DNA from: a virus | Length of the DNA stretch: 64,000 nt | Strand: one strand, 5' to 3' | Virus record (IMG/VR): IMGVR_UViG_3300033998_000095 | Coordinates: 32,001-96,000 of that record | In this document: positions 4,013 to 59,815 of the stretch, in pieces | Position numbering within the stretch: position 1 is the stretch's first letter | Layout: each line of letters begins with the position of its first letter | The notes under the pieces: model-generated | The model's input: the letters and a program-made list of their open reading frames with translations, nothing else | The model's database searches: none | Told to the model about the DNA's origin: nothing | Made by a program: the position numbers and the translations under genes

Positions 4013-5728
4013 TTAGGATGGTATAAACATAACTCTAACTTGATTGGCTGATTTATTAATATTAATAATTCTTCCAACTATTTGATCAGCATATTGTTTT
4101 CGTTCTGTTTTACTAATAACTTTCCCATAACCATTGTCATCAGGTATAATATAATCTCCAATTTGAGCATCTTCAACATTTACTACATCTACCCATACAT
4201 ATCCAGCAGAACATATTGGAAGTTTTTTACCAGATTTAATTTCTTCTTCACTACCACCAGCTAAATAAGCATAAGAATCTGAAACTATACCAATTACAGA
4301 TGAAGATCCTTTACTGGCTAATGCTACAGTATCATTGTCTACTATTGCTACTATTTTATTTTTTGCAGTTTCATATGAGAGACCATCTTCAGGTATCAAA
4401 CAATCAGCAAAGTCATTATATACTGCATTATACACTCTTGTAGCATAAAAATATCCATCTAAATTCAATCTATAAGCTGCTGTTGGTGCTGTAGATCCTG
4501 CATATAAATAACCTTCAGCTTTAGTGGTACCTGATATCTTCAGAGTACCAGTCATTACATCTCCAGCTTTTTTAACATAAGTATTGGTAGCTTCTGTTTT
4601 TGTAGCAAAGGTATTATTAGCATATGTTCTAAGACCAGTGATTTCATTATCAACATATCGTTTTGTAGCAGCATGCAATAAATTAGTTGGATCTGCATGG
4701 AGAGTAAGATAACCAGTCATAGAATCTCCAGCTTTTTTAACATAAGTTCCAGTTGCTTGGTTTTGTGTAACAAAATTGGTATCAACATAATTTTTTAAAT
4801 TATTTATACTGGTATCAACAAAACCCTTTGTAGCTGCATGCATTGTATTAACTGGATGATCATATAATGTTAAAAATCCAGTCATTGTAGTACCAAGCTT
4901 AGGCACATAATCAGCAACCAATCTATTATCTATTTCTTGAGCAGCATAGTCTACATACCCTTTAGTAGCTGCTTGTCTACTACCCAAGGGATCTCTAACA
5001 GTTGATGGGTGTACACTTAAAGTTAATACACCAGTCATAGTGTCTCCAGATTTCTTAACAAACCTATCATCATGTTGAGAATCATGATTGGCTATTACTG
5101 TATCCACATATTCCTTATTCGCTGCTTGATTTGGTTCAGTTGGAGTAACAACATAGATTATTGTATCTTCATCAATAACACCACCATATATAGGCGTAAA
5201 GCTTCCAGTTAACCATTTGGGAAGATAAGCTGGGTCTGCTCTTAAATCTTTAAAATTATCCTCATTAGCAATCCAAGTATTAAATGCTGATTCACTTGGT
5301 AAAGTTAACCAGTTACCAGTTTTAAGATAAAATAATTTTAAATGTTTCGTTTCATTATATGTTTCTATTGGAATAGTCTTAATGGAAGCAACTGCTAGTG
5401 GTTGTATTTTTCTATATTCATATTCAACAACTATAAAATATTCTTTTTGATTTATTGGGCCTGCATTAGGATCTAATACTACTATGGTAGATGGTTGTTT
5501 AAATTCAATACATACATAGTTCATAACTACAATACCATTGGTCAACTGCATAACTATCTTCTGTTGTGCTGAATCATATATAAACGTATAATCTAATCCA
5601 TCGATGTATATATTCTGTCTTCCAAGTATCTTTAATAATTTATTATGATTATCAGAAAATACTGGTGAAAATGGATCTATATTTCTTTCCTGAATAGCAT
5701 CCCATTGAGTTGTAAGCACATAAGCCAT
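4013..5728 (-). CDS. Tail fibre protein with repeats and C-terminal intramolecular-chaperone-like domain
   Basis: Repeated VKK(A/S)GDxMTGxLTL...HAATKxYVD units; C-terminal VYNAVYNDFAD...VIGIVS...GYVWV domain. Confidence 0.8.
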   Translation of the reverse strand: MAYVLTTQWDAIQERNIDPFSPVFSDNHNKLLKILGRQNIYIDGLDYTFIYDSAQQKIVMQLTNGIVVMNYVCIEFKQPSTIVVLDPNAGPINQKEYFIVVEYEYRKIQPLAVASIKTIPIETYNETKHLKLFYLKTGNWLTLPSESAFNTWIANEDNFKDLRADPAYLPKWLTGSFTPIYGGVIDEDTIIYVVTPTEPNQAANKEYVDTVIANHDSQHDDRFVKKSGDTMTGVLTLSVHPSTVRDPLGSRQAATKGYVDYAAQEIDNRLVADYVPKLGTTMTGFLTLYDHPVNTMHAATKGFVDTSINNLKNYVDTNFVTQNQATGTYVKKAGDSMTGYLTLHADPTNLLHAATKRYVDNEITGLRTYANNTFATKTEATNTYVKKAGDVMTGTLKISGTTKAEGYLYAGSTAPTAAYRLNLDGYFYATRVYNAVYNDFADCLIPEDGLSYETAKNKIVAIVDNDTVALASKGSSSVIGIVSDSYAYLAGGSEEEIKSGKKLPICSAGYVWVDVVNVEDAQIGDYIIPDDNGYGKVISKTERKQYADQIVGRIININKSANQVRVMFIPS

Positions 5729-5747
5729 TAATAATAACCTCCTCTAT

Positions 5748-6320
5748 TTAAAACACAAAAAACCATTCAATAATTATCTTATCCATATTAGATTTAGGAA
5801 TAGAAGGAAATGTTACATGAGATAACATAACAAAATTGATTTCATTGTGATCTTCTGATGGAGCAGCATATAATCCAGCTTCATTTATGTATGTATCTAT
5901 ACAATCATTATAGTCAATAGTCATAGAAAATTTAGCAGTAAGATAAGCAGAGTATGATATACTGTCTATTAATTTTTTATTTTTAGTTGGATTATATAAT
6001 GGTCCTCCTAAATCATTAAATGGTAATATATTATAAAGCTCAGCATCATTATCAGTTGGCCAAGTTGGCTGAAAGGGAGCATCTATTGTGGCTGCACCAT
6101 TACCTACAGAAAACCATCGTGGAACCCATTCGTTCTTAGCATTTGTATCACTATAAGGCAAATCAAATAGTCGCTGCATGATATAATTTCTACCAGTTAA
6201 TACAATTTTGTTGTTCTTATCAACTACAATATCATTGTTTTTATAGATCTTTACTCTACCCTCGAATGAATATCTATCCTTATATTTAATATTATCATAT
6301 AACTTAAGATGCTTGTCCAT
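5748..6320 (-). CDS. Baseplate/tail-collar protein
   Basis: NKIVLTGR, FSVGNG, INEAGLY and C-terminal IIIEW, typical of myovirus baseplate and fibre-attachment domains. Confidence 0.6.
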   Translation of the reverse strand: MDKHLKLYDNIKYKDRYSFEGRVKIYKNNDIVVDKNNKIVLTGRNYIMQRLFDLPYSDTNAKNEWVPRWFSVGNGAATIDAPFQPTWPTDNDAELYNILPFNDLGGPLYNPTKNKKLIDSISYSAYLTAKFSMTIDYNDCIDTYINEAGLYAAPSEDHNEINFVMLSHVTFPSIPKSNMDKIIIEWFFVF

Positions 6321-6356
6321 ATTATATTCATTTCCTCCTTTATTTATACACTCTAT

Positions 6357-8153
6357 TTAATATATTATATTTACTGGATTATATGATATATTTGTTAGAT
6401 CATATGGTATATTTGTTGGATAAGGATATATCATATTTTTTATTCTCATATTAAACGTTACATTATTAAAACTTTTTCCACGTGGTATATATACCACAGG
6501 TATAATCCAGCCAACATTATAAGGTAAATATGTTATATTAGCAATATCATCACAAGTCATAAACTCAGACATATCTAATACATCTGTAGGTCTAAGTTCT
6601 CTTGGATATGGATCTATAAATTGTGCTGAACCTATATCATATATATATGGTAATTTTTTCTTATACCAACCAATATTTTGTTTATAACACCAACAATTGC
6701 TTAATAATTCATTATGTCTATTATGGTGATGTATTATATTCTGTTCTGCATCAAAATTAAATGCAAATCTCACTTCTGGATCACACAATGCAGATATTTC
6801 TACATCAACAACACCATGTAATATTTTATATTTAGTTCGTCCTACTAAAATAACATCCCTATTCCAAGTATTAACAACAGTACCAGATATATGATCCCAT
6901 GTTAAATGTTCCAAATTTTGACGTAATTTATCTATTGTGTTCATTGTGGGTATATAAAATTTCCATGTAGAAGGAAAATGTCCACTATATGCTTTAGTAT
7001 ATATTTCTTCTTTAAATACTCTAGTTTCTTCATCTATTATTTCATCTTGTGTGTTAACCAACAAGGAATAATCAAAAACATTAACTACAGCGTCATCATC
7101 GTCTAAATTTGGTACATATCTTATATAATCAATAACAGAACGATATATAATTCTCTTTATATAATCTCTTATTTTGACGATGACATCATATAAACTATCA
7201 TCTTTAGTATCATCATAATCATATAATCTGTGCATTACACCAGTGACAATCTGTTTAGTTATTATTCTAGATATATAATCTGATGATGTTACAGATTCAT
7301 CTATATCACCATCTATTCGTAGTATGGGTGCAGTTTGTAAATTATAAGCATGATATGGTTTTACAAAGTCAACAATTATTTTCATATATATCTTGTACAA
7401 ATAAGAGAAAATAGCATATATACGCAATGGAAACATCTTCTTTGTAAAACCATATAATATCTGTTCTAATACAGCTAAAAAAGATAAATAGAATCTATTT
7501 CCATCAAGCAATGCTTTATTAAATAAGTTTAAATCGTCATCAATTGGTGTGTATTGACTATCAAAGAATTTAGCAAAAGGTTTAATATCAAATATGTAAT
7601 CTCTTGATACTCTAGTAATCATAGTAACTGAATTTAAAGCATCTTCAATAGCTTGTAGTCTTGCTTCTATCCAATTATAAAAAGGTTCATTCATTGTTTT
7701 TAATACTTCATATGATGAATAATTTAAAAAATTTGGTCCTGGTTTATAAAACCATTTTTCAATTGTTTGCATACGTAGAAACTTTTCATCTGTGTCATAT
7801 ACATTAGCAGAAAGTTCATCAAACATTTCCAATGCCATTGGGATATCAACATATGGATTATCAATAGGGCCATTCCATCCCATTGATGATATCCCCACAC
7901 TCTCTTGAACTTCTGGGGGAAAACCCCAATACATTCTATCAAATACCATCCACAAACCTAAACATAATTCATTAAAAGATATAAATTCTCCATATCCTTC
8001 AATTGATAATACTCTAGTATTGTATCCATGCAGTTCCTGATAATCATAATATTGTTTGACTATATCTAATGCAATAGCTGTTTCTTGTATCATATGTGTT
8101 GTTAAGAAATTATTTATTGAAAAATATGATGTTCGTTGTGGAAAATTAGACAT
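6357..8153 (-). CDS. Baseplate wedge-like structural protein
   Basis: IVDFVKPYHA resembles the KPxH motif of P2 gpI/T4 gp7-like wedge domains; baseplate cluster. Confidence 0.45.
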   Translation of the reverse strand: MSNFPQRTSYFSINNFLTTHMIQETAIALDIVKQYYDYQELHGYNTRVLSIEGYGEFISFNELCLGLWMVFDRMYWGFPPEVQESVGISSMGWNGPIDNPYVDIPMALEMFDELSANVYDTDEKFLRMQTIEKWFYKPGPNFLNYSSYEVLKTMNEPFYNWIEARLQAIEDALNSVTMITRVSRDYIFDIKPFAKFFDSQYTPIDDDLNLFNKALLDGNRFYLSFLAVLEQILYGFTKKMFPLRIYAIFSYLYKIYMKIIVDFVKPYHAYNLQTAPILRIDGDIDESVTSSDYISRIITKQIVTGVMHRLYDYDDTKDDSLYDVIVKIRDYIKRIIYRSVIDYIRYVPNLDDDDAVVNVFDYSLLVNTQDEIIDEETRVFKEEIYTKAYSGHFPSTWKFYIPTMNTIDKLRQNLEHLTWDHISGTVVNTWNRDVILVGRTKYKILHGVVDVEISALCDPEVRFAFNFDAEQNIIHHHNRHNELLSNCWCYKQNIGWYKKKLPYIYDIGSAQFIDPYPRELRPTDVLDMSEFMTCDDIANITYLPYNVGWIIPVVYIPRGKSFNNVTFNMRIKNMIYPYPTNIPYDLTNISYNPVNIIY

Positions 8154-8180
8154 TAATAATTCATCTCCTATCTACAACTA

Positions 8181-10445
8181 TTATAATAAAACAATTTCAT
8201 TATAATGTTGAGGATCCAATAAAGGACCAATCTGAAGAGGCTCGTAGGTTGTAATTATTAAATATGGTGTATTATAACTTAACCAATCGTAGTAAGCTAA
8301 ATCTAATATTGGTTTAAAGGTAATTATAAACTGAGTATCAACTTTATAATATCTATCCCCATATAAAAACAATTGCCATTTGAAATTATTATCATCCACA
8401 CATCTTAAATTACCCATACAATCCATACCAATTATTCTCAATAATGATCCAGAATGTAATATCTGAATAGATCTCTCTAAATACATATCATAGCATATAC
8501 ACATATAATCATCTACAACAGATCTGTAATTTGATGAATTGTAATCATAATTTATAACTTTACCACTAACATATAGCCTTTTATCTCTACCAATAAAAAA
8601 TGAAATATTATCATCCAAATAAAACTCGTCTATGTCATACATAAATATATCATTACTTATATTTTGAGTAAATACTTCTCTTTCAGGTAAAGTATCTAAT
8701 AAAGAGCATTGTTGTACGTAGTTTTCTAATTTATAGACATCAAATCCAATAACACCTGAAGTATTATCTATGAAATACATAAAATTGTTAGTGCACATAA
8801 ACTTGTTTAATGGTCTTGATCCAAGATCAATATTAAATGTAATAGTTAGCTTATCTAAGAAATCAGATTTCATCGAAAACCATGTATTGTTTGTTTTATT
8901 AATAACTATTATATCACTTGAAAACAAAATAAATAAAAATTCATTATAATCATAACTCTGTTTAATATGCAATGAATTATCATTCAAATAATCTGTTAAT
9001 GACATATTGTTTATAATATGAACTATATTATTAAAACTTAATGTTGAAACGACATTGCGAAACGTATCTATCATCATACCATTAGTGTTGTCATCACTAC
9101 TTGTAAACAATAGATATTTATCAGACATAAAAGCACAAGCTATATCTGATAGATGAGAACAATTAAATGCTGAGATATAATTATTTTTGACCCACCAATT
9201 GCTTTCAACACTAACATCTATCCACGTTGGTTCACCATCTTGATTATAATTAAATGTAGTTCCAGATAGATGTGTTCTAATACACTCTTTTGGTGTACCA
9301 TTATGAATAACTATACTACCAACTAGATATTGTGTGTTTGGTTGCCATGTACTATAAGCATCAAGGTATTCCTGTAAATAATAATCATACCATTCTTGAT
9401 CATATAATACATATTTTGTTTCAATATTGTTGTTTTTAGTATTTATTATGTAACATATTGTTTTGGTCTTAAATTGTGGTGGTCCAGATATATCAGCTAC
9501 TGGTTTGGTAGTCATAACATTACCATGACCATCTTCTACATCATAGGATATTCTAAACTTATTTAAGGGTATATTATCGTGATCTACTGAAACAGGATAG
9601 TCTAATTTAACTACAACAGCAGCCTTATTTGTAAAGGAATTAAAATTGAAACTCCCTACTTCTTTAATAGATATATAATCTGGTAAGTTTAGATATTTCT
9701 GTAAATGTTTAAAATTATCTAGATTGTATGTACATAACCAGTTTTTTGGATATATAAATGTATTTTTCAAAGCTATACTATCTAATGTCTGCTCATCTAA
9801 ATACCATAATATATCATCCACTTCACTAAGTTTTATATCATTAGCCACTAATACATTTTTATATTGTTTAGCCACATCAGAATAATATACTGTATCTGGA
9901 ACTAGATACCATTCATCCAATGTTCTATTCAGATCATATTCATTTATTGTAAAAAATGTATAACCCAGTTGAACTAAAAAGTCTCCTAATAAATTTGGTG
10001 TGCCTTTTTTGCGCAAAAAAGAATATATTTTGTATGCTATATTCTGTCTAGAATTAAAATCGAATATATCATATATATCGAACCCATATGATATTAATAT
10101 ATCATTGATGATATCACTATCCAATTCATATACATTAGTTATATTTCTTCTTGTGGTAACTAATGTATTTATGACAGAAAATATTTTAGTAATTAAAAGC
10201 ATTATATTATTATAATCTTCATGATTGTATATATTTTGATACACTACATTATCAATATGTGTTGTAACCAGATCTTCAGACTGAAAATATCGTTCTTTCA
10301 TCATTGTTTGTGATATTTTAGAAAAGTCATTAGTTCTAATTGCATCTAATAATAATTTAAACATAACAATAGGTACATTAAGTGTAGAAAGAGAAGCCTC
10401 TAACTCTTGCAATGAGGATGTGTTTTTTAAATTGATATTATTCAT
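8181..10445 (-). CDS. Baseplate wedge-like protein with CBM5/12-like carbohydrate-binding module
   Basis: LRKKGT wedge motif; WQPNTQYLVGSIVIHNG...C...H...W matches a CBM5/12-type pattern. Confidence 0.5.
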   Translation of the reverse strand: MNNINLKNTSSLQELEASLSTLNVPIVMFKLLLDAIRTNDFSKISQTMMKERYFQSEDLVTTHIDNVVYQNIYNHEDYNNIMLLITKIFSVINTLVTTRRNITNVYELDSDIINDILISYGFDIYDIFDFNSRQNIAYKIYSFLRKKGTPNLLGDFLVQLGYTFFTINEYDLNRTLDEWYLVPDTVYYSDVAKQYKNVLVANDIKLSEVDDILWYLDEQTLDSIALKNTFIYPKNWLCTYNLDNFKHLQKYLNLPDYISIKEVGSFNFNSFTNKAAVVVKLDYPVSVDHDNIPLNKFRISYDVEDGHGNVMTTKPVADISGPPQFKTKTICYIINTKNNNIETKYVLYDQEWYDYYLQEYLDAYSTWQPNTQYLVGSIVIHNGTPKECIRTHLSGTTFNYNQDGEPTWIDVSVESNWWVKNNYISAFNCSHLSDIACAFMSDKYLLFTSSDDNTNGMMIDTFRNVVSTLSFNNIVHIINNMSLTDYLNDNSLHIKQSYDYNEFLFILFSSDIIVINKTNNTWFSMKSDFLDKLTITFNIDLGSRPLNKFMCTNNFMYFIDNTSGVIGFDVYKLENYVQQCSLLDTLPEREVFTQNISNDIFMYDIDEFYLDDNISFFIGRDKRLYVSGKVINYDYNSSNYRSVVDDYMCICYDMYLERSIQILHSGSLLRIIGMDCMGNLRCVDDNNFKWQLFLYGDRYYKVDTQFIITFKPILDLAYYDWLSYNTPYLIITTYEPLQIGPLLDPQHYNEIVLL

Positions 10446-23916: not shown

Positions 23917-25650
23917 TTATATTAAAGTATCTATATCAACTTTCCATAAATCCTCTGTTTCCTCTTCATCAGTTGTGACTACTTCTTGCTCTTCTTCATT
24001 AATATCTTGAGTATTAACTGAAACTTTATACTTAGCTAATTTAACTGTGCTAGGATCTTCATCGAATATGATACTAATCCTCTCTGGAATATCAAACATT
24101 CTACAAACAGTATAATCAATCCTCATTAAAAATCTTATATTGCTAGGACCATCTCTATTTTTATCTATAATACCCCAAACTTCTTTATAGTTCTTATAGT
24201 TATCTGTATTGTTTAATATATCATCCACATCTAATGTATTATAATCAATTACAGTTTCTTCAACTTTAGAGAAATCAAATAGAACTAATACATCAGCATT
24301 TTCTCTCTTCCTAATAGAGCCAGCTATTTTATCTCCTTTTATGTTTTCACCATATCCACTTCTATTTACCTGTGTAACAGTTACAACAGGGATATTAAAT
24401 TCAACACTCATGGCTTTTAAATCATCTACAATCTTTCCTAGATCTATCCATTCTTGTCCAGTCTTACTCTCTGTGGTTGCTGCCAATTTATCAGCATAAT
24501 CTATAAATACTATCTTTATTTTAGTACCATATGTGCGTTCAATATCATTTATTAATGACATAATATCAAAAGTATTAATTGATCCAGGTGATCTCCATAC
24601 TATGAATATTTCAGTACTATTTGGCTTGACAAATACCTGATCATATTTTTCTTTCACATAATTATAGTTGTTTAATCTATAAGATGATTCAAATTCATGT
24701 TTGGCTATTCCAGTGGCACAACTTACAAATCTTGCCTGTGTTTCCTCTTTACCATTTTCTAATGTTAAATACAATACACCCCATTTTTCTGATTCAGGTA
24801 TATTGTCCAACTTTCTTCTTTCATCAAGAGATATCTTAGCAGTGTAAGCTAAATTAATTAATACTAGAGATTTACCTCCACCAGAAATACCTCCCATAAT
24901 GTAAACCCTTCCATTTTCAAAGCCACCATTAAAAGCATAATCAAATACTTTGTATCTAGTGGGTATATGCTCTTTATTAAGTTCTTGGAGAATATAATCT
25001 TCAAAATTAGAAGTAGAAAGACTTAGAATATCTCCTCTTGATAATTCACTTATTTTAGTTTTGACTACAGTCTCATCTATAATCTTATTAAAGATGCTCA
25101 TATATTCATCTAAATCTTTACATGTCTTGTAATCTTTAATGATGAAATTCATTAGCACTTGATGTTGTTCAAATATATTAAATAAACATTTCCTATATGT
25201 AAATTTCTCTTCAATAAGATTAATGACATCCATGGAAAGAACATCTTGAGCTACACAATATCTGGAAAGAATTTCGTTTTGAATAGATGCTAATCTTGAA
25301 TCTGATTGGAGTATCTTTTTGAAATCCTCTAAACATATATCTCCATCTATATACTTCTTTCTACTATCTATGCATTTATCAAGGATATTGACTGTAGCTG
25401 AAGCTATATCATCAAAAGCCAAAAATTTAATATTATATTCCTTTTCCTTTGATTTAATCATATTGATAAAGGTCTTGAATTCTTTGGCCAAAAGGGAAGC
25501 TATCTCCATAACATCTTTATCTGGTTTCTTACCAAAAGCACATCTAGTATAATATGCTACAAACTCATTACCCATAAATACTTTATCTGTTTCTATTATT
25601 CTTTTCAGTTCTTGAAACAACATATCTGGTGATATATTATCAGTAATCAT
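23917..25650 (-). CDS. Replicative DnaB/gp41-like helicase
   Basis: GGISGGGKS Walker A, YLTLEN, FIDYAD, TQVNR, IDKNRDG. Confidence 0.92.
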   Translation of the reverse strand: MITDNISPDMLFQELKRIIETDKVFMGNEFVAYYTRCAFGKKPDKDVMEIASLLAKEFKTFINMIKSKEKEYNIKFLAFDDIASATVNILDKCIDSRKKYIDGDICLEDFKKILQSDSRLASIQNEILSRYCVAQDVLSMDVINLIEEKFTYRKCLFNIFEQHQVLMNFIIKDYKTCKDLDEYMSIFNKIIDETVVKTKISELSRGDILSLSTSNFEDYILQELNKEHIPTRYKVFDYAFNGGFENGRVYIMGGISGGGKSLVLINLAYTAKISLDERRKLDNIPESEKWGVLYLTLENGKEETQARFVSCATGIAKHEFESSYRLNNYNYVKEKYDQVFVKPNSTEIFIVWRSPGSINTFDIMSLINDIERTYGTKIKIVFIDYADKLAATTESKTGQEWIDLGKIVDDLKAMSVEFNIPVVTVTQVNRSGYGENIKGDKIAGSIRKRENADVLVLFDFSKVEETVIDYNTLDVDDILNNTDNYKNYKEVWGIIDKNRDGPSNIRFLMRIDYTVCRMFDIPERISIIFDEDPSTVKLAKYKVSVNTQDINEEEQEVVTTDEEETEDLWKVDIDTLI

Positions 25651-25683
25651 AATATAAAAATACCTCCCTTTTATTTATCTTTC

Positions 25684-26673
25684 TTACCAAGTTAAATTAT
25701 CCATATGATCAATATTAATTCCAAATATATCTATAATTGGTTCTAGTCTCTTATAAATTGCAATATCAAGCATGGCATCTATATCTGGATAAAAAATAGA
25801 GGTATCTAAATTAACTCCTTCAGGTACTGTAATAACATCAATCTGATCGTTTTTAATTAGCAAACCCTCAACACGCATTTGCTTTAATTTCTTATCATAA
25901 TCTTTGATCTTGCTACCATCTACTTTACTTATAGTAAATGTATATCCTCTATCTCCTTCATAAAAGGTAGGACCATATATGACATTGTATATTTTCATGC
26001 CTCTTATAGTCTTTGTCAATACTTTATATTCTCTAGCACCCCATCCACCAGGAACTCCTAAAGTATAATCACCAGCCATAAGTCTGGTTTTATATTCATC
26101 TATATATTTGTCTATTAGATTTAAAATTTGAAAAGAGCTGTATTCTTCTCTTAATATCTTATCTATAACATCTTGTAACATCTGTTTAGTAAACCTTGGG
26201 AAATCTGCTCTAACCACCTCCATACCAGTGATACTTAGATTATCTATTTTCTTTCCTTCTTTGTTGATGATCCATAATGCATACTTCTTCTTTGCATCTA
26301 AGAACATAGCTCTCTTAATAACTAATTCCTCTTTAAATGTAAAGTTATATTTAGTGGCAAGCTCAGAATCACCAGCATTATGCCTTTTAAGCATTTCAGG
26401 AATGATATATTTATTAATATATTCAGAACAATTTCTAACAATCTTTAAAGTGGTTTCTGTCTTTTCATCTTCACTTATTGAATCATATTTATCACCATAT
26501 AATGACTTGAGCACTGGTTCAATAAAGAGAAACATTGAGTCAGTATTATGTACTAAAATGTCATTAGCAAAAAACATATGGTTATTATCAACTTCAATAT
26601 CATATACATACTCTGGTACATTATTTTCAATTTTCTCAACAGATGCTATTCTTTCCTTTACTATAGGCATCAT
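25684..26673 (-). CDS. polB: DNA polymerase B, C-terminal half, starting with the C-intein
   Basis: YVYDIEV...FFANDILVHN followed by TDSMF, KKKYA, GMEVVRAD; own SD AGGGGG. Confidence 0.92.
   Translation of the reverse strand: MMPIVKERIASVEKIENNVPEYVYDIEVDNNHMFFANDILVHNTDSMFLFIEPVLKSLYGDKYDSISEDEKTETTLKIVRNCSEYINKYIIPEMLKRHNAGDSELATKYNFTFKEELVIKRAMFLDAKKKYALWIINKEGKKIDNLSITGMEVVRADFPRFTKQMLQDVIDKILREEYSSFQILNLIDKYIDEYKTRLMAGDYTLGVPGGWGAREYKVLTKTIRGMKIYNVIYGPTFYEGDRGYTFTISKVDGSKIKDYDKKLKQMRVEGLLIKNDQIDVITVPEGVNLDTSIFYPDIDAMLDIAIYKRLEPIIDIFGINIDHMDNLTW
26545..26673 (-). other. Split intein, C-fragment (about 42-43 aa)
   Basis: Block F VYDIEV, block G LVHN, +1 residue Thr. Confidence 0.92.
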
Positions 26674-27005
26674 CTAGTACCCCCTATTCAAAATATCCAT
26701 ATATATTATTATAATGATATGGAGTAAAATCCATATCGATCATATAGCATTGCCACAGCAGAACCACCAGGCTCCCTAAATAATATATCACATCAGGAGA
26801 TATATATCTCCAAATATTTTTTAACTGTCTTTGTGGATTAAGTATAGCATAATATCTCTCACTTATCAAGCATATTAATATTAATAATCTCTTTAATGAT
26901 ATAAAAATTTACATATATATTATTATAATGAAAGAAGAAGTTTGTAGCTGTGTTTTACAGGCTTTTTCTTTCAAATATTTTTTTTACTTTTAGGGGGGTA
27001 TTATT

Positions 27006-27224
27006 ATGTTTAAGGTTGTAATTGAATCTTTATTTAATGATAGGTATGGGAAAGGTAAAAGGAAAGAATTCGTAGTATTAAGTAAAGCAGTTGCTATTCA
27101 AAAAGCAACTGCATTTAGTAAGCATTCTTGTGTAGAAGTTATCGATCACCATAAACAATGTATTGCTTATGGAGATCCAGTAGTAGGATTCAAGGAGATT
27201 GAGAGTTATGAGCACAATTTGTAA
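27006..27224 (+). CDS. Small hypothetical protein, first gene of the inserted cassette
   Basis: 72-aa ORF with G-rich SD; overlaps the next gene. Confidence 0.65.
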   Translation: MFKVVIESLFNDRYGKGKRKEFVVLSKAVAIQKATAFSKHSCVEVIDHHKQCIAYGDPVVGFKEIESYEHNL

Positions 27225-27540
27225 GATATATAAAGCAGTACTGTCAACTACAGTACTGCCAAATGATGGAATTTATCAGGTAAGAACTCTTGAAACCTTA
27301 CCTGATATCACAGGGGTGCCTCATTATATAGGACACCCTGCAACAAAAGCAATTGTAGAACAGCTTGGAGCAGTTGAAGCTTCCTCCAAGCTGTTCCAAG
27401 GATTAGATGTTGGAGAAGCAGCTGTATGCTTTGCCATCAAGCAAGGGAGAAGTACTAGAAAGGATGAAGGGTTCACAACTCCTCATCAAGAAGTTAGCAT
27501 TGATGATCTTTCTGTAAGAGAGATCATCAGATTAGAGTAA
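27208..27540 (+). CDS. DUF1874/AcrIII-1-like (YddF, STIV B116 family) putative cA4 ring nuclease
   Basis: About 110 aa; LSTTVLPNDGIY, YIGHPAT (catalytic GH), AVCFAI and terminal IIRLE follow the family pattern; SD AAGGAG before the ATG at 27208. Confidence 0.75.
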   Translation: MSTICKIYKAVLSTTVLPNDGIYQVRTLETLPDITGVPHYIGHPATKAIVEQLGAVEASSKLFQGLDVGEAAVCFAIKQGRSTRKDEGFTTPHQEVSIDDLSVREIIRLE

Positions 27541-27546
27541 TAGAAA

Positions 27547-27582
27547 ATGGAAATGATCTGAGAATACTCAGGTCATTTCCAT
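27547..27582 (+). terminator. Stem-loop/terminator after the ring-nuclease gene
   Basis: 16-bp stem ATGGAAATGATCTGAG/CTCAGGTCATTTCCAT with one G-U pair. Confidence 0.7.
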
Positions 27583-27606
27583 AAATACATAATTAAGAAT
27601 AAGGAG

Positions 27607-28116
27607 ATGATAGTGATGATATCAATGAAAAGGTTAACAAAATTATTTGTTTTATCTTTTATTATAAGCTACTTCTGTATAAATACAGGATTAGCATATG
27701 GGAATAATCTACATTTAGGAACAATTCCAAATGTAGATTATAAAATAGCTGAAAATAATGGTAATAATACTATCACCATCAATGAAAGTGGCTCATCTAA
27801 CATTGATGTAATATTAGATGAGTATGGTGATGTTTGTTTTAATATCAAAAAGATAAATCTCTATTTTACTGCAAATATATTTGCTGTATTAGATATCCTA
27901 ACACAGCTTGATGTTATTGAACCAGGTACATATAGAAATATGATTTTGGATGACAATGGAGTGACATTTGAAGTTGGTGTTAGCTCTGTGAAAAAAGATA
28001 ACGTCATGATGTGCATTAGTAATCAAGATATATCACTAATTCTAGACATTAAAACACCTAAACAGTTTCAATGTCTAGAAGATATAGAAAACAATATTCG
28101 CTCCTTATTTAAATGA
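27607..28116 (+). CDS. Hypothetical secreted protein
   Basis: Signal-peptide-like N-terminus MKRLTKLFVLSFIISYFCINTGLAYG. Confidence 0.6.
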   Translation: MIVMISMKRLTKLFVLSFIISYFCINTGLAYGNNLHLGTIPNVDYKIAENNGNNTITINESGSSNIDVILDEYGDVCFNIKKINLYFTANIFAVLDILTQLDVIEPGTYRNMILDDNGVTFEVGVSSVKKDNVMMCISNQDISLILDIKTPKQFQCLEDIENNIRSLFK

Positions 28117-28122
28117 ATAGAT

Positions 28123-28165
28123 AAAGATATCAAGCGTGATTAAACGAATCACGCTTGATATCTTT
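28123..28165. terminator. Bidirectional intrinsic terminator
   Basis: 19-bp perfect stem between the convergent polB N-half and the secreted-protein gene. Confidence 0.85.
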
Positions 28166-28193
28166 TATTTAAGTAATATATTTCACTATATAT

Positions 28194-31100
28194 TTATTTT
28201 TGGTTTGTCAATACAAGATCAGAATCCAATATTTCATTTGGTTTAACTTGCATTAATTGTCCATCTCTCTCAATCATAATAGAATGGTCTTCAGTTACAA
28301 TTAATTCTTTTCCACTTTCAGTTCTAATTCTATACATTGGTTTATTAACTTTATGTCGTGATATATTATTTATTGATCTATATACAGCATCAGAATCTTC
28401 ATATGTAAGTACTTTGTCATTTGCAAAGATATATTCTCTTCCTATATAATTCATAAGTTTGTATTCCTTATGCCTTTCAAATAGATCTTTGATTGGTATA
28501 CCTTCTGGATATTGTTCAGTATTTATTTTTGTATTTTCATCAACAGAATCACCATATACTATATTCTCCAGTACATCAGCATCGAGAAATCTTGTATCAA
28601 ATTCATATGGTTCAATATCCATCTTGTGAGCATCTCTCATTTTATTTAAATACTGATGAATATGATATGCACCCATTGTTACTATTTCTCTTCCAGATGC
28701 AGTTATAGTCTCTGCAGATGGAAAATGAAACAGTCTAAAATATTGATTAGCAATTCCACCATATAGTGAGTTAGTAAGAACCTTATAAGTAAATTGCCAG
28801 TTATTATATCTTTCTGCTAACATATGATTATTATTCTCAATAGCTTTAAACATTTCATTTTTATATCGTTTACGTTCTCTAATAAGCATATCTATAATTT
28901 CATAATAAACTGACAATTTCGTGTTATGATTGACATACATTGTACCCATTATTGTTATTATCAAATTGTGTTTCGTTATAGTCTCATGCAATTTCTGTAC
29001 TGTTATCTGTTTAACATTTAAGTTCTTATCTTCATAATTAATAAGTCTATCTGGTTGAGGTAATAATTCATCTCTATTATAGATATACTCACGAGCTATA
29101 TATTCATCTACCTTACCAACATAGGTGTCAATAGAAATATTATATCGTGCAATGATATATGGATACAGAGAAGAAAGATCCAAATCAGCCAACCAGTTAT
29201 ATAATCCTTTTAATGGTTTTCTTACAAAAGCACCTTTAAGCTTTTCTGTTTCCTGATCATTATCTTTATCATATTCATATTTTTTACATATAACTGTCTT
29301 ATTTTGTTTATCCAATGTTGTAAATAGAATACCATCTATAATTGGAAGTGTGCTGAATGATTCCTCCCAACTGATGTTGGTAGCTCTTATAATGTTAAAT
29401 TGAATATCAATATATTTAAGTTTATTGTCCAACTTTCTAACAAGATGAACATCATTAATATTATAAGCAATGAATCTATTGGGATCTGATAACCACATAT
29501 CATCAAATCGTTTGTCAAGAGACAATTTCTTTATACCAAGTTCGAATTCAGCAATAAATCCAAGTGTATATGATTCTCTTTTACTGAATGTTCTTTTCTT
29601 ATACAATGTTAAATAATCACATTCCACGACATATGGAATGTATGGTTTATTAGTTCTCTCATTAATAAAAATACGACCATATTTGTTTTTACATTCTATT
29701 CCAAGATATTGTGATCTATTAATAATAATTGGCCAGTCAAATGCTGATGAGTTCCATCCTGTTACAAGATCAGGATCTATTTCATCAAATTTTTGAATAA
29801 ACCCGTTCAACATCTTTCTCTCATCATTATATACAAATATTTCAATATTACATTCGTCTTTATATTCAAGATGTTTGATTATTTCTTGTTTATCAATGTT
29901 CAAATTGAATGAGTTGTTTATAAATGTATAATAAGTATCAGTATAGTTATCATACAGGGTTATCAACGATATAGCATATCTCTTTGCAGCTGCCATCATG
30001 TCATCAAGAAGCATCATATTGCCATTGAGAAACAATTCGATATCTATAGCAGCAATTCTTAATGGTTGTTCAGTCTCAGTATAAGTATTTCTAAACTGAA
30101 TATTCTTATATACTGATAGATTCATATCTCCAAAGACATTAAACCCTTTACTCTTCAAATCATTTATTACATTTACTCTATCTTTAAACTGTATAACCTT
30201 GAGCTTTAGTTTATCCTTGTATTCAACAGTATTATTTGATTTACCATAATATAGAGCATATTTATCATCTGTAGTATGAATTATTTTATCTTGTCCTCTT
30301 CTTAATATATAATTAACTTCAGATTTAAGATAATTGTATACTGTATTGACTAACATTATATTATCTGATGTATTACTTGTGGTATCAGTATCACTCTTAT
30401 TGTCATTAACTGTTTCATATTTAGTATTGTTAGGAATAGGAAATAACTTCCTCACATCATCAGTAGTATAAGACATATGTGGTTGAACATTATCTTTTGA
30501 TTCTACAGCATATCTTATTTGTTTTAACCTATTAGCAAAAATATCGTATCTGGACATATTTCTGCATATTGCTGATGGATGAATACATGGCAATAATAGA
30601 TGATCATTATATTTATATATCTTTGTCATAGCATCAGTTATCTTATCTGTTATACCAAATCTACTACATGGATAATTACCAAGTGGAACTATAACAGCAT
30701 CAGCAGGTAATTTAGAAATGATTAACTCTAGATTGTCAAAACAATATGCTATCTCATCTTTCATTGGTGGGTTTGATGGTTGATGAAAACATAAACAAAC
30801 ATTCATAACACCCCAATGAATATCATTAAAACCAGTATTATCTAATGTTTGTCTTAATAACTGTCCTGCACGTCCAACAAAGGGTTTTCCTTCTTTAATT
30901 TCATTGACAGCTGGTGCTTCTCCAACAAATAATACTTTAACTTGAGATATATCATTTGTTGTAAAATCAAAAATAGTTCTTTGTATATCATCTTTATTAT
31001 TAGATTTGCATAATGCACATTGTGTAATGAGTCTCTTTTCTATCTCATCTTTCAATGGAGAGATAGTATCTATAGTATCTTCAACATTGCAAGAAACAAT

Positions 31101-31484
31101 AGATTCTTGATTAAGATTTTCAGTATTATTATTTTTTGTCAATGTAAGATATGTTTTAATATCTTCTTCTGATAAATAGGGATGTTGGTGTTTTAATTGA
31201 TTTATTTCATCAGTAACTTTCTTTGATTTGTTTGACATATATTGTATCTGTTTAGATCTATTAATATTTCTGTGAAATTCAGATAATTTATCAAAAGGTA
31301 CATTTCGTGCAAGTATAGGATTAGTATTAATTAACTGATCTAAGTATATACAAGATAACACATCATCTTCAGATATATTTAATATCGTAGATATATTAAG
31401 TTGTTTAACTGAATCATCCAATGAATCAGTCTTATGTTGTATATAATAAATGTATTTAGTTAGTGGTGATAACTCTTTTGCCAT
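28194..31484 (-). CDS. polB: Uracil-DNA glycosylase (family 4)-fused DNA polymerase B, N-terminal half, ending in the N-intein
   Basis: UDG: CALC, VGEAP, GKPFVGRAG, NVCLC, HPSA. Exonuclease: DIE, GWNSSAFD, YNINDV. Polymerase: DLSSLYP, KVLTNSLYG, YGD, then intein sequence. Confidence 0.93.
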   Translation of the reverse strand: MAKELSPLTKYIYYIQHKTDSLDDSVKQLNISTILNISEDDVLSCIYLDQLINTNPILARNVPFDKLSEFHRNINRSKQIQYMSNKSKKVTDEINQLKHQHPYLSEEDIKTYLTLTKNNNTENLNQESIVSCNVEDTIDTISPLKDEIEKRLITQCALCKSNNKDDIQRTIFDFTTNDISQVKVLFVGEAPAVNEIKEGKPFVGRAGQLLRQTLDNTGFNDIHWGVMNVCLCFHQPSNPPMKDEIAYCFDNLELIISKLPADAVIVPLGNYPCSRFGITDKITDAMTKIYKYNDHLLLPCIHPSAICRNMSRYDIFANRLKQIRYAVESKDNVQPHMSYTTDDVRKLFPIPNNTKYETVNDNKSDTDTTSNTSDNIMLVNTVYNYLKSEVNYILRRGQDKIIHTTDDKYALYYGKSNNTVEYKDKLKLKVIQFKDRVNVINDLKSKGFNVFGDMNLSVYKNIQFRNTYTETEQPLRIAAIDIELFLNGNMMLLDDMMAAAKRYAISLITLYDNYTDTYYTFINNSFNLNIDKQEIIKHLEYKDECNIEIFVYNDERKMLNGFIQKFDEIDPDLVTGWNSSAFDWPIIINRSQYLGIECKNKYGRIFINERTNKPYIPYVVECDYLTLYKKRTFSKRESYTLGFIAEFELGIKKLSLDKRFDDMWLSDPNRFIAYNINDVHLVRKLDNKLKYIDIQFNIIRATNISWEESFSTLPIIDGILFTTLDKQNKTVICKKYEYDKDNDQETEKLKGAFVRKPLKGLYNWLADLDLSSLYPYIIARYNISIDTYVGKVDEYIAREYIYNRDELLPQPDRLINYEDKNLNVKQITVQKLHETITKHNLIITIMGTMYVNHNTKLSVYYEIIDMLIRERKRYKNEMFKAIENNNHMLAERYNNWQFTYKVLTNSLYGGIANQYFRLFHFPSAETITASGREIVTMGAYHIHQYLNKMRDAHKMDIEPYEFDTRFLDADVLENIVYGDSVDENTKINTEQYPEGIPIKDLFERHKEYKLMNYIGREYIFANDKVLTYEDSDAVYRSINNISRHKVNKPMYRIRTESGKELIVTEDHSIMIERDGQLMQVKPNEILDSDLVLTNQK
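28197..28547 (-). other. Split intein, N-fragment (117 aa)
   Basis: Begins SVDENTKI directly after YGD; block B LIVTEDHS; ORF stops after DLVLTNQK. Confidence 0.92.
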
Positions 31485-31563
31485 GAATTAAAATCCCCCA
31501 TCATATAATAATCATATAGACAATGTTTTATTTAACTAAACTTGGCAAGAAGTCTCCCATCTT

Positions 31564-32829
31564 CTACAAGTGGGAGATGAATTGCCAATTATTGTTATGA
31601 TTTATGAACTCTATATGCTTAAAACTAACTTGTTTATAAGATTTATTTGGTATAGTGATATAATTACCTTCTATATCTTGTATATATGCACCACCATTAG
31701 TAAAGCCTGTTATAAAACCAACTTTACCAAATACCTTCACTTTATCATTAAGATAAAAGCCATTTCTATATTTAGTGTTTTTACTGTTTCTTTTTTGAGT
31801 TCGATTTGGTTCTTTTCTACCTTTTCTTGGTATTGCTTCATGTAAACTACGCTTCTTTTTTCTAAATTGCTTTATTTTGAAGTAGTTGTCTGGATTATGC
31901 TTTATACTTTCTATTCCTGTTATAGCTATCGCATCATTATAATGAGTTTTTTCTAAGCCTAATTCTTTTCTTCTTATAGTTGTATAACTGCCATAGACTA
32001 TATTGGCTTCTGGGTATTTTTCAAAAACTCTACGTCTTATAATGTTCATTAATGGAGTTTCTTTATAACTTGGCATCTTTTTCTTTTCCATCATCCATTT
32101 GTAAAATATGCCACCTTCTTGATGATTTTTATGTGTATGACAATCTGTGCAAACTGTTATTAAATTACTTGGTCTATCTGTACCACCTTTAGACTTATAT
32201 ACTATGTGGTGAGTTTGCAAAATCTTGCCTTTCTTCTTACATACTTGACAAGTATAATTATCTCTTGCAAATACATAATATCTCACATCATAGTAACCAT
32301 AAGTTTCCCCTTGCTGGTATTCTACACCTTCTATGTCTGGATTCATCATTTTTTGAACATCAAATTTGCCTACTTCAATGCACAACTTAGGGCTTGGCAG
32401 TAAATTTATAAAGTTGTCTATCCATCTAAATGTATTATCAATTCTACTTTGAATTGAAGGTGGTAGCCAATCTTCTGGTCTCTTTCGGTTATTAAATCTA
32501 GGTTTTCTATATTTAGTTTTTCTATATCTCCTACTTCTACGATACTGCCTTCTTATATCTAAATTTTTCTTTACATCATTTCTTAGTTCAATTTCTCCTT
32601 TTATAAGAACTTTATCTTCACTTGTTACTGCTATTCCTATGTGTTTAGAGCCTAAATCTACACCTAAAGTTACAGGTTGTTTATAGCCACTACTTCCGTA
32701 TAAAAGCTGAATTGTAAAAGGTTTATAACTAATTATCTTAGCTTTCTTTTGTTGTAGTAATTTTCTAGCTTTACTAGGTTTACATGGCATTAAATTTTCA
32801 CCATGCTTATTTTTTACGAACACTAACAT
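31564..32829 (-). CDS. iscB: RNA-guided endonuclease IscB
   Basis: NLMP (PLMP domain), LGVDLGSK RuvC-I, RRSRR bridge helix, HNH (HHI...SNLITVCTDCH), HYNDA RuvC-III. Confidence 0.95.
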   Translation of the reverse strand: MLVFVKNKHGENLMPCKPSKARKLLQQKKAKIISYKPFTIQLLYGSSGYKQPVTLGVDLGSKHIGIAVTSEDKVLIKGEIELRNDVKKNLDIRRQYRRSRRYRKTKYRKPRFNNRKRPEDWLPPSIQSRIDNTFRWIDNFINLLPSPKLCIEVGKFDVQKMMNPDIEGVEYQQGETYGYYDVRYYVFARDNYTCQVCKKKGKILQTHHIVYKSKGGTDRPSNLITVCTDCHTHKNHQEGGIFYKWMMEKKKMPSYKETPLMNIIRRRVFEKYPEANIVYGSYTTIRRKELGLEKTHYNDAIAITGIESIKHNPDNYFKIKQFRKKKRSLHEAIPRKGRKEPNRTQKRNSKNTKYRNGFYLNDKVKVFGKVGFITGFTNGGAYIQDIEGNYITIPNKSYKQVSFKHIEFINHNNNWQFISHL

Positions 32830-32844
32830 AAAGTGCTCCTCCTT

Positions 32845-33065
32845 TCAGGAGTTGTTGCCCTTCGCCAATGTTATCTATCCTTACATGTGAAGCCGACTAT
32901 CCCTACCCCTTAGGATTGTTTACGTACTCCACGACAGAGCTTGGAACTAGGGCATCATTCCAATGTGTCATAAGATAGATAACGTAGCTTTCGCTTAGGC
33001 TAGTCAACTAGGGCTTACAAGCCCCCACTTCAAGCACCTATGGTGCTAAGTGGTGGGTAGTTGAC
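32845..33065 (-). ncRNA. omegaRNA (HEARO-like) scaffold
   Basis: GTCAACTACCC...GTTGACTAGCCTAAG...CTACGTT...AACATTGGCGAAGGG upstream of iscB; similar to the copy at 56319. Confidence 0.85.
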
Positions 33066-33099
33066 TTGAAGTGGGAGATACTGTTTTAGCTATTTATTA

Positions 33100-55199: not shown

Positions 55200-56369
55200 A
55201 TGATTATGGGTGATATTTATGAACTGGTAAAAGAGATTGAAGAGGATTTGAAAGAGACTGTTGAGGATATTAGTTTTAATGAAGATATTGAAACCATACC
55301 AACTGGTATAGATCTATTTGATACTATACTTGGTGGTGGAATACCTGTTGGTAAGTTGGTGCTTATAACAGGTGCTCCTGGTGGTGGAAAGACAAGCTTA
55401 GCAATAAGTATGATATCATCTTTGCAAAAGAGATATAAAAATGCTCTTGCTTTATATCTTGATGCTGAACAGTCTATGGGAAAGAAGAGATTGGAAGAAT
55501 TTGATGTTGATACTGATAGGACTATTCTCATTTCCCAAGATCTTACAGTAGAAAAGGTTAGCAAGATAATATCTAAAGCAACTGCATATAGAGAAAATAA
55601 AAAATATAAAGATATTAATGATCCTTTCTTTGTGGTATGGGATAGTGAATCTGCTACCATGACAAATAAACAGTTAGCAGCAAACGATGATCCATCTAAA
55701 GTACTTGGACAAAAGTCAAACATGTTATCATTAGTTATCCCTAAACTGGTAAATGTTGCTAATAAGTATAAAATGACATTTATAGTTATATCTCAATTGA
55801 GAGATAAGATAAGTATGAATCCATTTGCATCTAACTCTCCTGATTTGAAAGGATTAGGTGATAAAAGAATAACTGGTGGAAATGTGATGCGTTTTCATCC
55901 ATTTCAGATCATCTATATGAGACCAAAGGAAGATGTAGATATAGATGTTTATGGATTCTCAGGTGTTATATCTGAAGTTAAATTGATAAAGAATAAGTTG
56001 TTTAGACCAAACATTAAAATTAACATAGTCTTAGATTATATACGTGGTTATAATGATTTTTGGACTAGAGAGTATCTAATAAGACAACATAAAGGTATAA
56101 AAGGTACAGCATGGCAGTATTTAGATAATTATCCAGATGTTAAGTTTAGAAAAAGCGATATCCTTAATATGTATAATACAAATGAGACATTTAGACAGAA
56201 ATTTGATGAATTGTATTATACCTATAAAGAAGAACTTTTGAAATCTACACTTCTAGATACTGCTGTTGTTGATCTTGATGATTCTGAAGAAGCAGATGAA
56301 GAAGATGGTGTTTCTGATGTCAACTACCCACCGCTTATAGAAGCGGAGGCTTGGAAAAGCCTTAGTTGA
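55200..56369 (+). CDS. recA: RecA/UvsX-like recombinase; last 16 aa come from the IscB element
   Basis: IPTGIDLFD..LGGGIP, GAPGGGKT, YLDAEQS, VWDS, SQLRDKI, TGGN, KNK. Confidence 0.92.
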   Translation: MIMGDIYELVKEIEEDLKETVEDISFNEDIETIPTGIDLFDTILGGGIPVGKLVLITGAPGGGKTSLAISMISSLQKRYKNALALYLDAEQSMGKKRLEEFDVDTDRTILISQDLTVEKVSKIISKATAYRENKKYKDINDPFFVVWDSESATMTNKQLAANDDPSKVLGQKSNMLSLVIPKLVNVANKYKMTFIVISQLRDKISMNPFASNSPDLKGLGDKRITGGNVMRFHPFQIIYMRPKEDVDIDVYGFSGVISEVKLIKNKLFRPNIKINIVLDYIRGYNDFWTREYLIRQHKGIKGTAWQYLDNYPDVKFRKSDILNMYNTNETFRQKFDELYYTYKEELLKSTLLDTAVVDLDDSEEADEEDGVSDVNYPPLIEAEAWKSLS

Positions 56370-56545
56370 CTACCCTAAGTCTTAACTGACTACGTTGGAA
56401 TAATTATCTTACCCTGAAATGATGCCCAAGTTTCAGGCTCTAAGGTGGCTCTGTAAAAGTTCTGATGGGTAGGAACGGTCAACCACAATTGGCAGTTATA
56501 CTGCAAAGTTATTCCAACATTGGGGATGGGCAAATAACTCCGAAA
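56319..56545 (+). ncRNA. omegaRNA (HEARO-like) scaffold
   Basis: GTCAACTACCC...GTTGACTACCCTAAG...CTACGTT...AACATTGGGGATGGG upstream of iscB. Confidence 0.85.
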
Positions 56546-56562
56546 GGAGGGCTTAAAGCCAA

Positions 56563-59814: not shown

Positions 59815-59815
59815 A

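Follow-up and report, generated by a model that had tools for sequence, protein, structure and literature searches.

The window analysed here is a 64,000-nt stretch of phage DNA (positions 32,001–96,000 of the IMG/VR record IMGVR_UViG_3300033998_000095), and its subject is a family B DNA polymerase (PolB) encoded by two separate genes, each of which carries one fragment of an intein. All coordinates below are window positions. The complete record is a 112-kb virus record that CheckV estimates to be 41% complete, and it is therefore a fragment of a larger genome. Matches to major head, portal and tail-fibre proteins identify a tailed phage; the GC content is ∼29%, and the split-PolB region lies within a block of minus-strand genes. 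DNA runs containing the stretch came from at least nine studies, which had sampled the subsurface, biogas fermenters, activated sludge and anaerobic digesters. A megablast search with the split-PolB locus against GenBank phages gave no match, and the genomic contexts of relatives were taken from IMG/VR.

The larger of the two genes, here called the N-half, occupies 28194–31484 on the minus strand, encodes 1096 aa and ends in a stop codon at 28194–28196. Its extein (28548–31484) consists of an N-terminal region of ∼150 aa, a uracil-DNA glycosylase (UDG) domain at residues 179–317, and the exonuclease and polymerase domains of PolB, and it ends with ...NIVYGD at residue 979. The corresponding Pfam matches are UDG (E = 7.8e-20), DNA_pol_B_exo1 (6.4e-18) and DNA_pol_B (8.6e-25). 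The smaller gene, the C-half, lies at 25684–26673 on the same strand, encodes 329 aa and has its own ATG, with a Shine-Dalgarno-like GGGGG run 6 nt 5′ of it. The C-extein (25684–26544; 286 aa plus stop codon) starts with TDSMF and runs via a KKKYA motif through the PolB palm and thumb, matching DNA_pol_B positions 269–356. Coverage of PHROG 262 (DNA polymerase, 856 positions) is complementary, with positions 9–569 in the N-half and 575–847 in the C-half. The PolB motifs read from the translations are DIE (residue 481), FD (582), YNIND (674), LSSLYP (770), NSLYG (905) and YGD (977) in the N-half, followed by TDS (44) and KKKYA (128) in the C-half. Joined, the exteins have the features of a family B polymerase, with Exo I–III, motifs A and B, motif C (DTD) and KKxY all intact.

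The exteins differ from those of L007, a 91%-identical IMG/VR contig, at 89 of 885 codons. As 77 of these differences are synonymous and 12 non-synonymous, we conclude that the exteins are under purifying selection; the C-extein alone shows 16 synonymous and 2 non-synonymous differences. The intein-coding segments (26545–26673 and 28197–28547) carry one synonymous change in 160 codons in the same comparison. This near-identity could be due to chance, to gene conversion or to an extra constraint on the DNA. At the N-terminus of the polymerase (30534–31484, minus strand) the UDG domain follows ∼150 residues without assignment and carries the motif GEAPAVNE, at a place where family-4 UDGs have GEAPG. 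The UDG-PolB fusion recurs in the more distant relatives L017, L021 and L022.

Directly after YGD the N-half continues for 117 aa (28197–28547, minus strand) as an N-intein. It begins with a serine, contains block A (SVDENT), an NX motif (SRH), block B (VTEDHS) and block N4 (VKPNEILDSDLVL), and ends with ...LVLTNQK before the stop codon. The C-half opens with a C-intein of 43 aa (26545–26673, minus strand) that starts with MMPIVKE and contains block F (YVYDIEVDNNHMFFAN) and block G (DILVHN). Blocks F and G read ...YVYDIEVD..HMFFANDILVHN and are followed by TDS, which gives a terminal His-Asn with Thr at +1. There is no cysteine in either fragment. Together they cover the Pfam family Intein_splicing (PF14890, 155 positions, gathering cut-off 35.8 bits) in a complementary manner, positions 12–93 being found in the N-half and 121–155 in the C-half, and PF14890 is present in the precomputed annotation of many homologous C-halves. 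A preliminary description of this DNA had read the N-half as ending in IVYGD with a 117-aa Ser-initiated N-intein, and had placed a separate ORF with its own Shine-Dalgarno sequence ∼1.5 kb further on, starting with a C-intein of ∼43 aa that ends in LVHN before TDSMF. The ORFs read exactly so, the distance being 1520 nt, and their translations (...YGD and TDS...) bear out its statement that the joined exteins restore YGDTDS.

The residues expected to carry out the splicing chemistry are conserved, whereas the sequence around them has diverged. In an alignment of 7 N-halves (A4; 35–59% identical to the window's N-half) Ser1 is invariant (S84 of the alignment), as are T168, E169, D170 and H171 of block B. 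The NX motif S-R-H comprises intein residues 63–65; its His (H148 of A4) does not vary, and the residue before it is Arg or Lys in every row. A conserved His after Arg or Lys between blocks N2 and N3 has been described as the “NX” motif of Ser1 cysteine-independent inteins (PMC10189870). With this His, and with no Cys at positions 1 and +1, the intein falls into that class. In 20 aligned C-halves (A1; 33–79% identical) Y24, D25, A36, N37 and L40-V-H-N43 of the C-intein are invariant, and the following T-D-S likewise. An N-terminal Ser nucleophile, T-x-x-H in block B and the HN end followed by Thr+1 are the marks of a class-1 intein. The two ORFs have their own stop and start, and the break falls between block N4 and block F, as in naturally split inteins.

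Among solved structures the N-intein matched chain 9hth_A best (E = 2e-12), followed by PI-PkoII (1.5e-4), and the C-intein matched 7cfv (2.7e-6), 9hth (1.7e-5), gp41-1 (2.9e-5) and PolB16 (1.9e-4); Spl DnaX was also among the matches of the intein halves. The closest solved structure is thus 9HTH, a PolB split intein of the Aeromonas-phage type. Between the aligned blocks there are 25 residues in 9hth and 25 in the N-tail plus C-head of the window's intein. The split therefore lies in the usual endonuclease-insertion loop, with no part of the fold missing or added. The preliminary description had proposed a trans-splicing split intein at YGD/TDS, and what this reading predicts at the sequence level holds throughout: Ser1, block B, the NX motif, block F, the terminal HN and Thr+1 are present, and the closest solved structure is a split PolB intein.

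The gap between the halves (26674–28193) is 1520 nt long and contains three ORFs on the plus strand, g1, g2 and g3, in keeping with a reversal of the local GC skew over this cassette. None of the gap ORFs matched a nuclease family in Pfam or PHROGs and no homing endonuclease was found in the gap, in line with the preliminary description, which had recognised none. The inverted repeat between the convergent N-half and g3 (28123–28165) forms a perfect 19-bp stem; its folding energy is −29 kcal/mol on one strand and −31 kcal/mol on the other (z = −8.65 and −9.76), and none of 200 shuffled sequences folded as well. This hairpin, which the preliminary description had called a bidirectional terminator, is real, and a terminator is its candidate role. 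At the other end of the cassette, C-half and g1 diverge from an intergenic region of 332 nt (26674–27005), in which both strands have sigma-70-like matches and which contains another strong hairpin. This hairpin (26929–26973, plus strand), a 19-bp stem with a U-run behind it, is located ∼30 nt ahead of the start codon of g1 and folds with −24.1 kcal/mol (z = −5.8). It resembles a terminator but is not preceded by any plus-strand gene, and a role as 5′ leader or attenuator of the cassette is possible. A 61-aa minus-strand ORF in this region (26684–26869) has a counterpart of 100% identity in L007; nothing else supports it as a gene, and it was treated as leader or promoter DNA.

The convergent hairpin, the opposite-strand cassette and the GC-skew reversal all suggest that the two halves are transcribed separately, as had been considered probable in the preliminary description. 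RNA-library contigs from two studies stop at 28101–28110 and resume at 28189–28264, where DNA contigs are continuous, and RNA-library contigs from two studies likewise break within 26674–27005, where a DNA contig (X4 record 17) is continuous. Both breaks are a weak hint in the same direction. Together, the RNA-library contigs extend over the whole locus but carry no information on strand, RNA ends or transcription.

The first gene of the cassette, g1 (27006–27224, plus strand, 72 aa), gave no family (Pfam, PHROG), PDB or Atlas match; at 79% identity to its counterpart in L007 it is the most diverged part of the locus. The third, g3 (27607–28116, plus strand, 169 aa), probably starts at the ATG at 27625, carries a hydrophobic helix at its N-terminus and is restricted to this lineage of phages. 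We found only four homologues (68–96% identity), no Pfam, PHROG or PDB match and no usable Atlas match. A Ran-binding/PH-like assignment was rejected as not meaningful, the matches being to generic beta-sandwiches at TM ∼0.4 and the model being poor (pLDDT 67).

Between them, g2 (27199–27540, plus strand; real start probably the ATG at 27208) resembles the DUF1874/STIV_B116 proteins of the AcrIII-1/Crn2 ring-nuclease family. Its family profile matched the PDB entries 2j6b (AFV3-109; E = 8.9e-8), 2j85 (STIV B116; 1.7e-6), 2x4i (SIRV1 ORF114; 4.9e-5) and 6scf (AcrIII-1; 4.6e-3), and 8 of 21 g2 homologues match PF08960. The g2 model has a pLDDT of 85.8, and its 16 best Foldseek matches in the PDB are all Csx1-Crn2, AcrIII-1 or DUF1874 chains, with TM up to 0.59. 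An invariant G45-H46 aligns to the I-G-H motif of AFV3-109 and STIV B116, which we take to hold the catalytic His (H47 of SIRV1 gp29). Two results speak against the assignment: the g2 protein itself does not match PF08960, which is reached only by its homologues and the family profile, and the Foldseek E-values are modest (2e-3 to 4e-2). Profile and model comparisons together suggest that g2 is probably a cA4-degrading ring nuclease, i.e., a type III anti-CRISPR protein.

A DnaB-like helicase gene (23917–25650, minus strand; Pfam DnaB_C, E = 8.8e-19) lies directly downstream of the C-half and probably shares its transcription unit. The helicase is found downstream of the C-half in relatives as well, at variable spacing.

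In order to place the split among its relatives, homologous loci were compared. The database search returned a family of ∼327-aa C-halves down to 38% identity, most with intein annotation, and in IMG/VR all seven loci of this family were split. The gap measures 1.5 kb in the window and L007, 4.1 kb in L011, 4.4 kb in L010, 4.8 kb in L009, 6.6 kb in L008 and 7.8 kb in L013. Gap genes in these relatives encode ThyX, a QueT transporter, an SLT transglycosylase, a CoiA-like protein and TnpB, and the gap of L008 holds another DUF1874 gene. In the window's phage, ThyX is encoded 40 kb away from the split locus. In L013, a TnpB-like gene (OrfB_IS605/Cas12f1-like TNB; 6628–8112 of that locus) is followed by a region of short tandem repeats (8248–8752), which indicates that selfish elements also land between polymerase halves.

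In a tree of the C-exteins the seven split loci form one clade with support 88/89. The nearest rows outside this clade form an unresolved fork of L017, a UDG-PolB with a contiguous mini-intein at YGD/TDS, and the pair of L022, which is contiguous, and L024. Read from these sequences, the split appears to have arisen once, in the ancestor of the ∼275-kb phages from anaerobic habitats that make up this clade. The same intein allele is found in contiguous form in Salicola phage SCTP-2 and in the IMG/VR loci L017–L020, L023, L027, L030 and L031. L025 and L028 have the classic fractured layout, with a same-strand ORF of 317–320 aa between the halves; the 320-aa ORF of L025 has no Pfam match, and its identity as an endonuclease could not be confirmed. 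In L021 the halves abut, and the N-half ends in a Vsr-like domain. At 5171–8521 of this locus the N-half runs past the N-intein into a Vsr/DUF559-like endonuclease motif (...FVFRNRKYVLFIDGDYWH...) and the ORF of the C-half overlaps its end, which looks like a split after an endonuclease domain. In T4-like phages of Aeromonas and Campylobacter, a homologous intein is inserted two residues later, at DTD/S. Among the best 150 clusters of a search through 1.8 billion representatives, at least 11 are C-halves of ∼310–370 aa that start with a C-intein; splitting at this site is thus common and recurrent.

Taken together, we consider it highly probable that the phage makes its UDG-fused replicative PolB from two separate precursors joined by split-intein trans-splicing. 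The first precursor would comprise UDG, the PolB exonuclease domain, motifs A and B and YGD, followed by the 117-aa N-intein, and the second the 43-aa C-intein followed by TDS and the remaining palm and thumb. We infer that the intein fragments associate and fold into one Hint domain, and that class-1 splicing would then proceed via oxyester intermediates, using Ser1, Thr+1 and Asn cyclisation. The product would be an uninterrupted enzyme whose metal-binding motif C (YGDTDS) is whole again. The nearest outgroup has an undivided mini-intein at this position, and the split probably started from such a form. An endonuclease, if there was one, would have been lost since, and the halves may have drifted 1.5–7.8 kb apart while unrelated genes entered between them.

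Motif C supplies metal-binding Asp residues of the polymerase. With one motif-C Asp on each precursor, an unspliced pair would be expected, from general knowledge of PolB enzymes, to have a domain of ∼160 aa inside the active site. In the 112-kb record, PolB matches are confined to the two halves. The same holds for two complete relatives of the split clade (275 and 284 kb, one with terminal repeats), in which PolA and the Pol III alpha subunit gave no match either. The preliminary description had held that replication depends on trans-splicing. The finding that the split enzyme is the sole family A, B or C polymerase in the two complete relatives strengthens this view, and by analogy with them the phage probably does depend on splicing for its replication; the dependence itself is still deduced.

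Several points weigh against the proposed explanation. The Intein_splicing scores (33.2 bits for the N-half and 25.3 bits for the C-half) each lie below the 35.8-bit cut-off when taken alone, and the clade support of 88/89 is below the starred threshold of the tree tool. Splicing competence is deduced from sequence comparison. Separate transcription is well supported by the anatomy of the locus; the Logan contigs show neither RNA ends nor strand. A second polymerase in the window's own phage is excluded only by analogy with the complete relatives, as this record is incomplete. An incomplete record would also fit a polymerase gene that is broken and decaying in a phage that uses a host polymerase or another phage polymerase. 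We regard this as highly improbable, as synonymous differences in the exteins far exceed non-synonymous ones, no PolB motif is damaged, the split has persisted throughout a deep clade, and its complete relatives have no other family A, B or C polymerase match. That the gap is a misassembly or chimera, and that the true gene has a contiguous intein, has in its favour that the record was assembled from a metagenome and that Logan contigs break inside the gap. Their loose ends (26738, 26777, 26989 and 27615) indicate that strain variants exist there. The same layout is nevertheless found in IMG/VR contigs from two other samples, with 98–99% protein identity (L005/L007 and L004/L006). We also mapped Logan contigs of four of the runs containing the stretch, from independent studies, on the locus. 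One contig (X4 record 17, 25600–27049) bridges the C-half edge of the gap, and two others pass the N-half stop codon by 30 nt (X4 record 19, 27199–28223) and by 26 nt (X10 record 2, 26750–28219), overhangs just under the 31-letter bridging rule. No joined form lacking the gap was seen in the contigs of the mapped runs. Each half moreover has its own stop or start codon, and the gaps of L008–L011 and L013 are larger still. Thus, contigs from other samples and from independent studies argue that the layout is not an assembly artefact, and we hold the chance of misassembly to be negligible. The check suggested in the preliminary description, to map reads across 26.7–28.2 kb, has this outcome: independent biogas and digester contigs cover the gap and reach both of its edges, and no contiguous gene appears.

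A further alternative is that the intein halves are splice-dead and serve as a non-covalent dimerisation module, so that the polymerase would work as two subunits that retain the intein. Split PolBs without inteins do exist (T4-like gp43 and M. thermautotrophicus PolB, cited in PMC2677866). On the other hand, the residues needed for the chemistry (Ser1, block B His, NX His, terminal Asn and Thr+1) are invariant down to ∼35% identity, and a retained Hint domain of ∼160 aa would, from what is established on PolB structures, keep the two Asp residues of motif C (DTD) apart. A two-subunit enzyme of this kind is therefore very unlikely. Trans-splicing could also be embedded in an adaptive arrangement, in which having two transcription units would control the timing or dosage of replisome assembly, and counter-defence genes would settle preferentially in the gap. 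The halves appear to lie in different transcription units, an AcrIII-1-like gap gene occurs in two sub-lineages, and the gap content, with its strain variants, is the fastest-changing part of the locus. However, relatives carry insertions of 1.3–4.4 kb between the C-half and the helicase and one insertion inside the helicase. These kilobase insertions elsewhere in the replication module weaken the case for the gap as a uniquely variable hot spot and suggest that it is not special within a generally plastic module. Most gap genes of the relatives are, in addition, metabolic (ThyX, QueT, SLT) or selfish (TnpB), and we find an adaptive arrangement doubtful. We are equally hesitant about a joint reading in which the gap would be a tolerated landing pad for accessory and counter-defence genes, the separate units would gate replisome assembly via splicing, and the intein would be the first of the naturally split PolB inteins to come from a mesophilic habitat, lack cysteine altogether and use Thr+1, which might make it orthogonal to Ser+1 tools. 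In L009 (10406–13661), ∼1.7 kb interrupt the DnaB-like helicase gene downstream of the C-half between residues ∼313 and ∼309 of the query match; this may be an intein or an intron.

Other elements of the window resemble mobile or spliced sequences. Two diverged units of IscB with omega-RNA are present at 31518–33067 (minus strand) and about 56319–57876 (plus strand). In each, a HEARO RNA (scores of 129 and 136 bits) precedes the gene for an RRXRR+HNH protein, which measures 421 or 437 aa. The first unit lies 34 nt upstream of the start of the PolB N-half and, compared with L007, is a 1.55-kb insertion that replaces ∼209 nt. Loose ends of read contigs at 31517–31588 suggest that this element is polymorphic and perhaps mobile. 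At 59792–60748 (plus strand) a 318-aa C-terminal piece of a class III ribonucleotide reductase (NrdD) is encoded. It contains an apparent contiguous mini-intein of 149 aa (∼59972–60418) with Cys1, a terminal G-N and Ser+1, reading FSSGG, then CYDDKT...VTKDHN...VWCGN, then SIEH. Pfam reports a weak Intein_splicing match here (E = 2.5e-3), beside NRDD positions 469–545.

At one site, YGD/TDS of phage PolB, every proposed stage of gene breaking can be seen in natural sequences: a contiguous mini-intein, an intein with endonuclease, a fractured gene with a free-standing ORF, abutting halves, and halves 1.5–7.8 kb apart that enclose unrelated genes. As a single clade keeps the split throughout, the gene-breaking model becomes testable by comparison. 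The co-evolved pairs of N- and C-fragments differ in age and bear on the proposal that N-fragments are less prone to aggregate the older their split is (PMC12707363). For engineering, the locus offers a candidate split pair with Ser1 and Thr+1 that is fully cysteine-free and comes from a habitat that is non-thermophilic by sample type (digesters, sludge). For phage biology, it presents a jumbo phage whose only polymerase is predicted to need protein splicing, with a probable type III anti-CRISPR gene inside that very locus.

The nearest known system is the PolB1 intein of the T4-like Aeromonas phages Aes123 and Aes516 (GenBank JN377905, Gp43B1/Gp43B2; PDB 9HTH). It is likewise naturally split, cysteine-less and of class 1 with Ser1, lies in motif C of a phage PolB, has fragments of similar size and is broken at the usual endonuclease-insertion point, as in the window. 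The insertion site differs, being DTD/S with Ser+1 two residues further on in the Aeromonas phages and YGD/TDS with Thr+1 in the window. In the Aeromonas phages the halves overlap or adjoin directly, whereas the window's are 1520 nt apart, and the Aeromonas polymerase has an extra split without intein (Gp43A). The Aes516 Gp43B1/B2 pair is annotated as a split intein in GenBank, and engineered CL/CLm inteins of this system are published (PMC11923092). The cysteine-less split inteins Aes123 PolB1, CP21, LCGC14, GOM-OPS-1 and PolB16 have been characterised and partly engineered, all of them with Ser+1 (PMC11923092; PMC12707363; PMC10189870). Split, cysteine-less inteins of phage PolB and their use as tools are thus already known, and they are prior art to the idea of a splicing tool raised in the preliminary description. 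In the Pseudomonas jumbo phage MIJ3/PA5oct (PMC6892783) PolB is split by a homologous intein with block sequences close to the window's; MIJ3 has Ser+1 and an HNH gene at the split PolB, in contrast to Thr+1 and the lack of a nuclease-like gap gene in the window. The contiguous mini-inteins at YGD/TDS (SCTP-2, L017 and others) share the site, Ser1/Thr+1 and homologous sequence with the window's intein but are spliced in cis from a single ORF; L017 shares the UDG-PolB fusion as well. The gap gene g2 has the fold and the conserved G-H in common with AcrIII-1/Crn2 proteins (SIRV1 gp29, 6SCF; STIV B116; AFV3-109; bioRxiv 10.1101/778746), but is a member of a separate subfamily of bacterial and phage proteins, which is closely conserved (60–70% identity among members) and falls mostly below the PF08960 threshold.

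In its layout, the window's locus resembles split genes of cellular genomes. Presumably the intein of Nanoarchaeum equitans PolB also lies at YGD/TDS with Ser1 and Thr+1, an assumption that could be checked only by a weak alignment to 5oxx_B (E = 0.61). We found no paper on the N. equitans Pol junction in the literature, and PMC4760082 does not give the site at residue level. Cyanobacterial DnaE and N. equitans PolB (PMC2677866) resemble the window in that their halves form separate transcription units with unrelated genes and no endonuclease between them. Their halves are unlinked in cellular genomes, whereas those of the window's clade are phage genes that stay 1.5–7.8 kb apart in the same orientation and order. 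“Fractured genes”, in which a free-standing homing endonuclease lies between split-intein halves, have been modelled to become uncoupled later (PMC2677866). Measured against the definition of Dassa et al. (2009), the window's locus is not a fractured gene, as the ORFs between the halves run on the opposite strand, g2 resembles DUF1874 proteins and neither g1 nor g3 matches a nuclease family. By these features it would correspond to a later stage (“step IV”) of the gene-breaking model. Judged by sequence, what is new relative to the known systems is a layout in which the halves are dispersed yet linked and enclose opposite-strand genes but no endonuclease, the age of a split that is kept clade-wide, and the combination of Thr+1 with a complete lack of cysteine.

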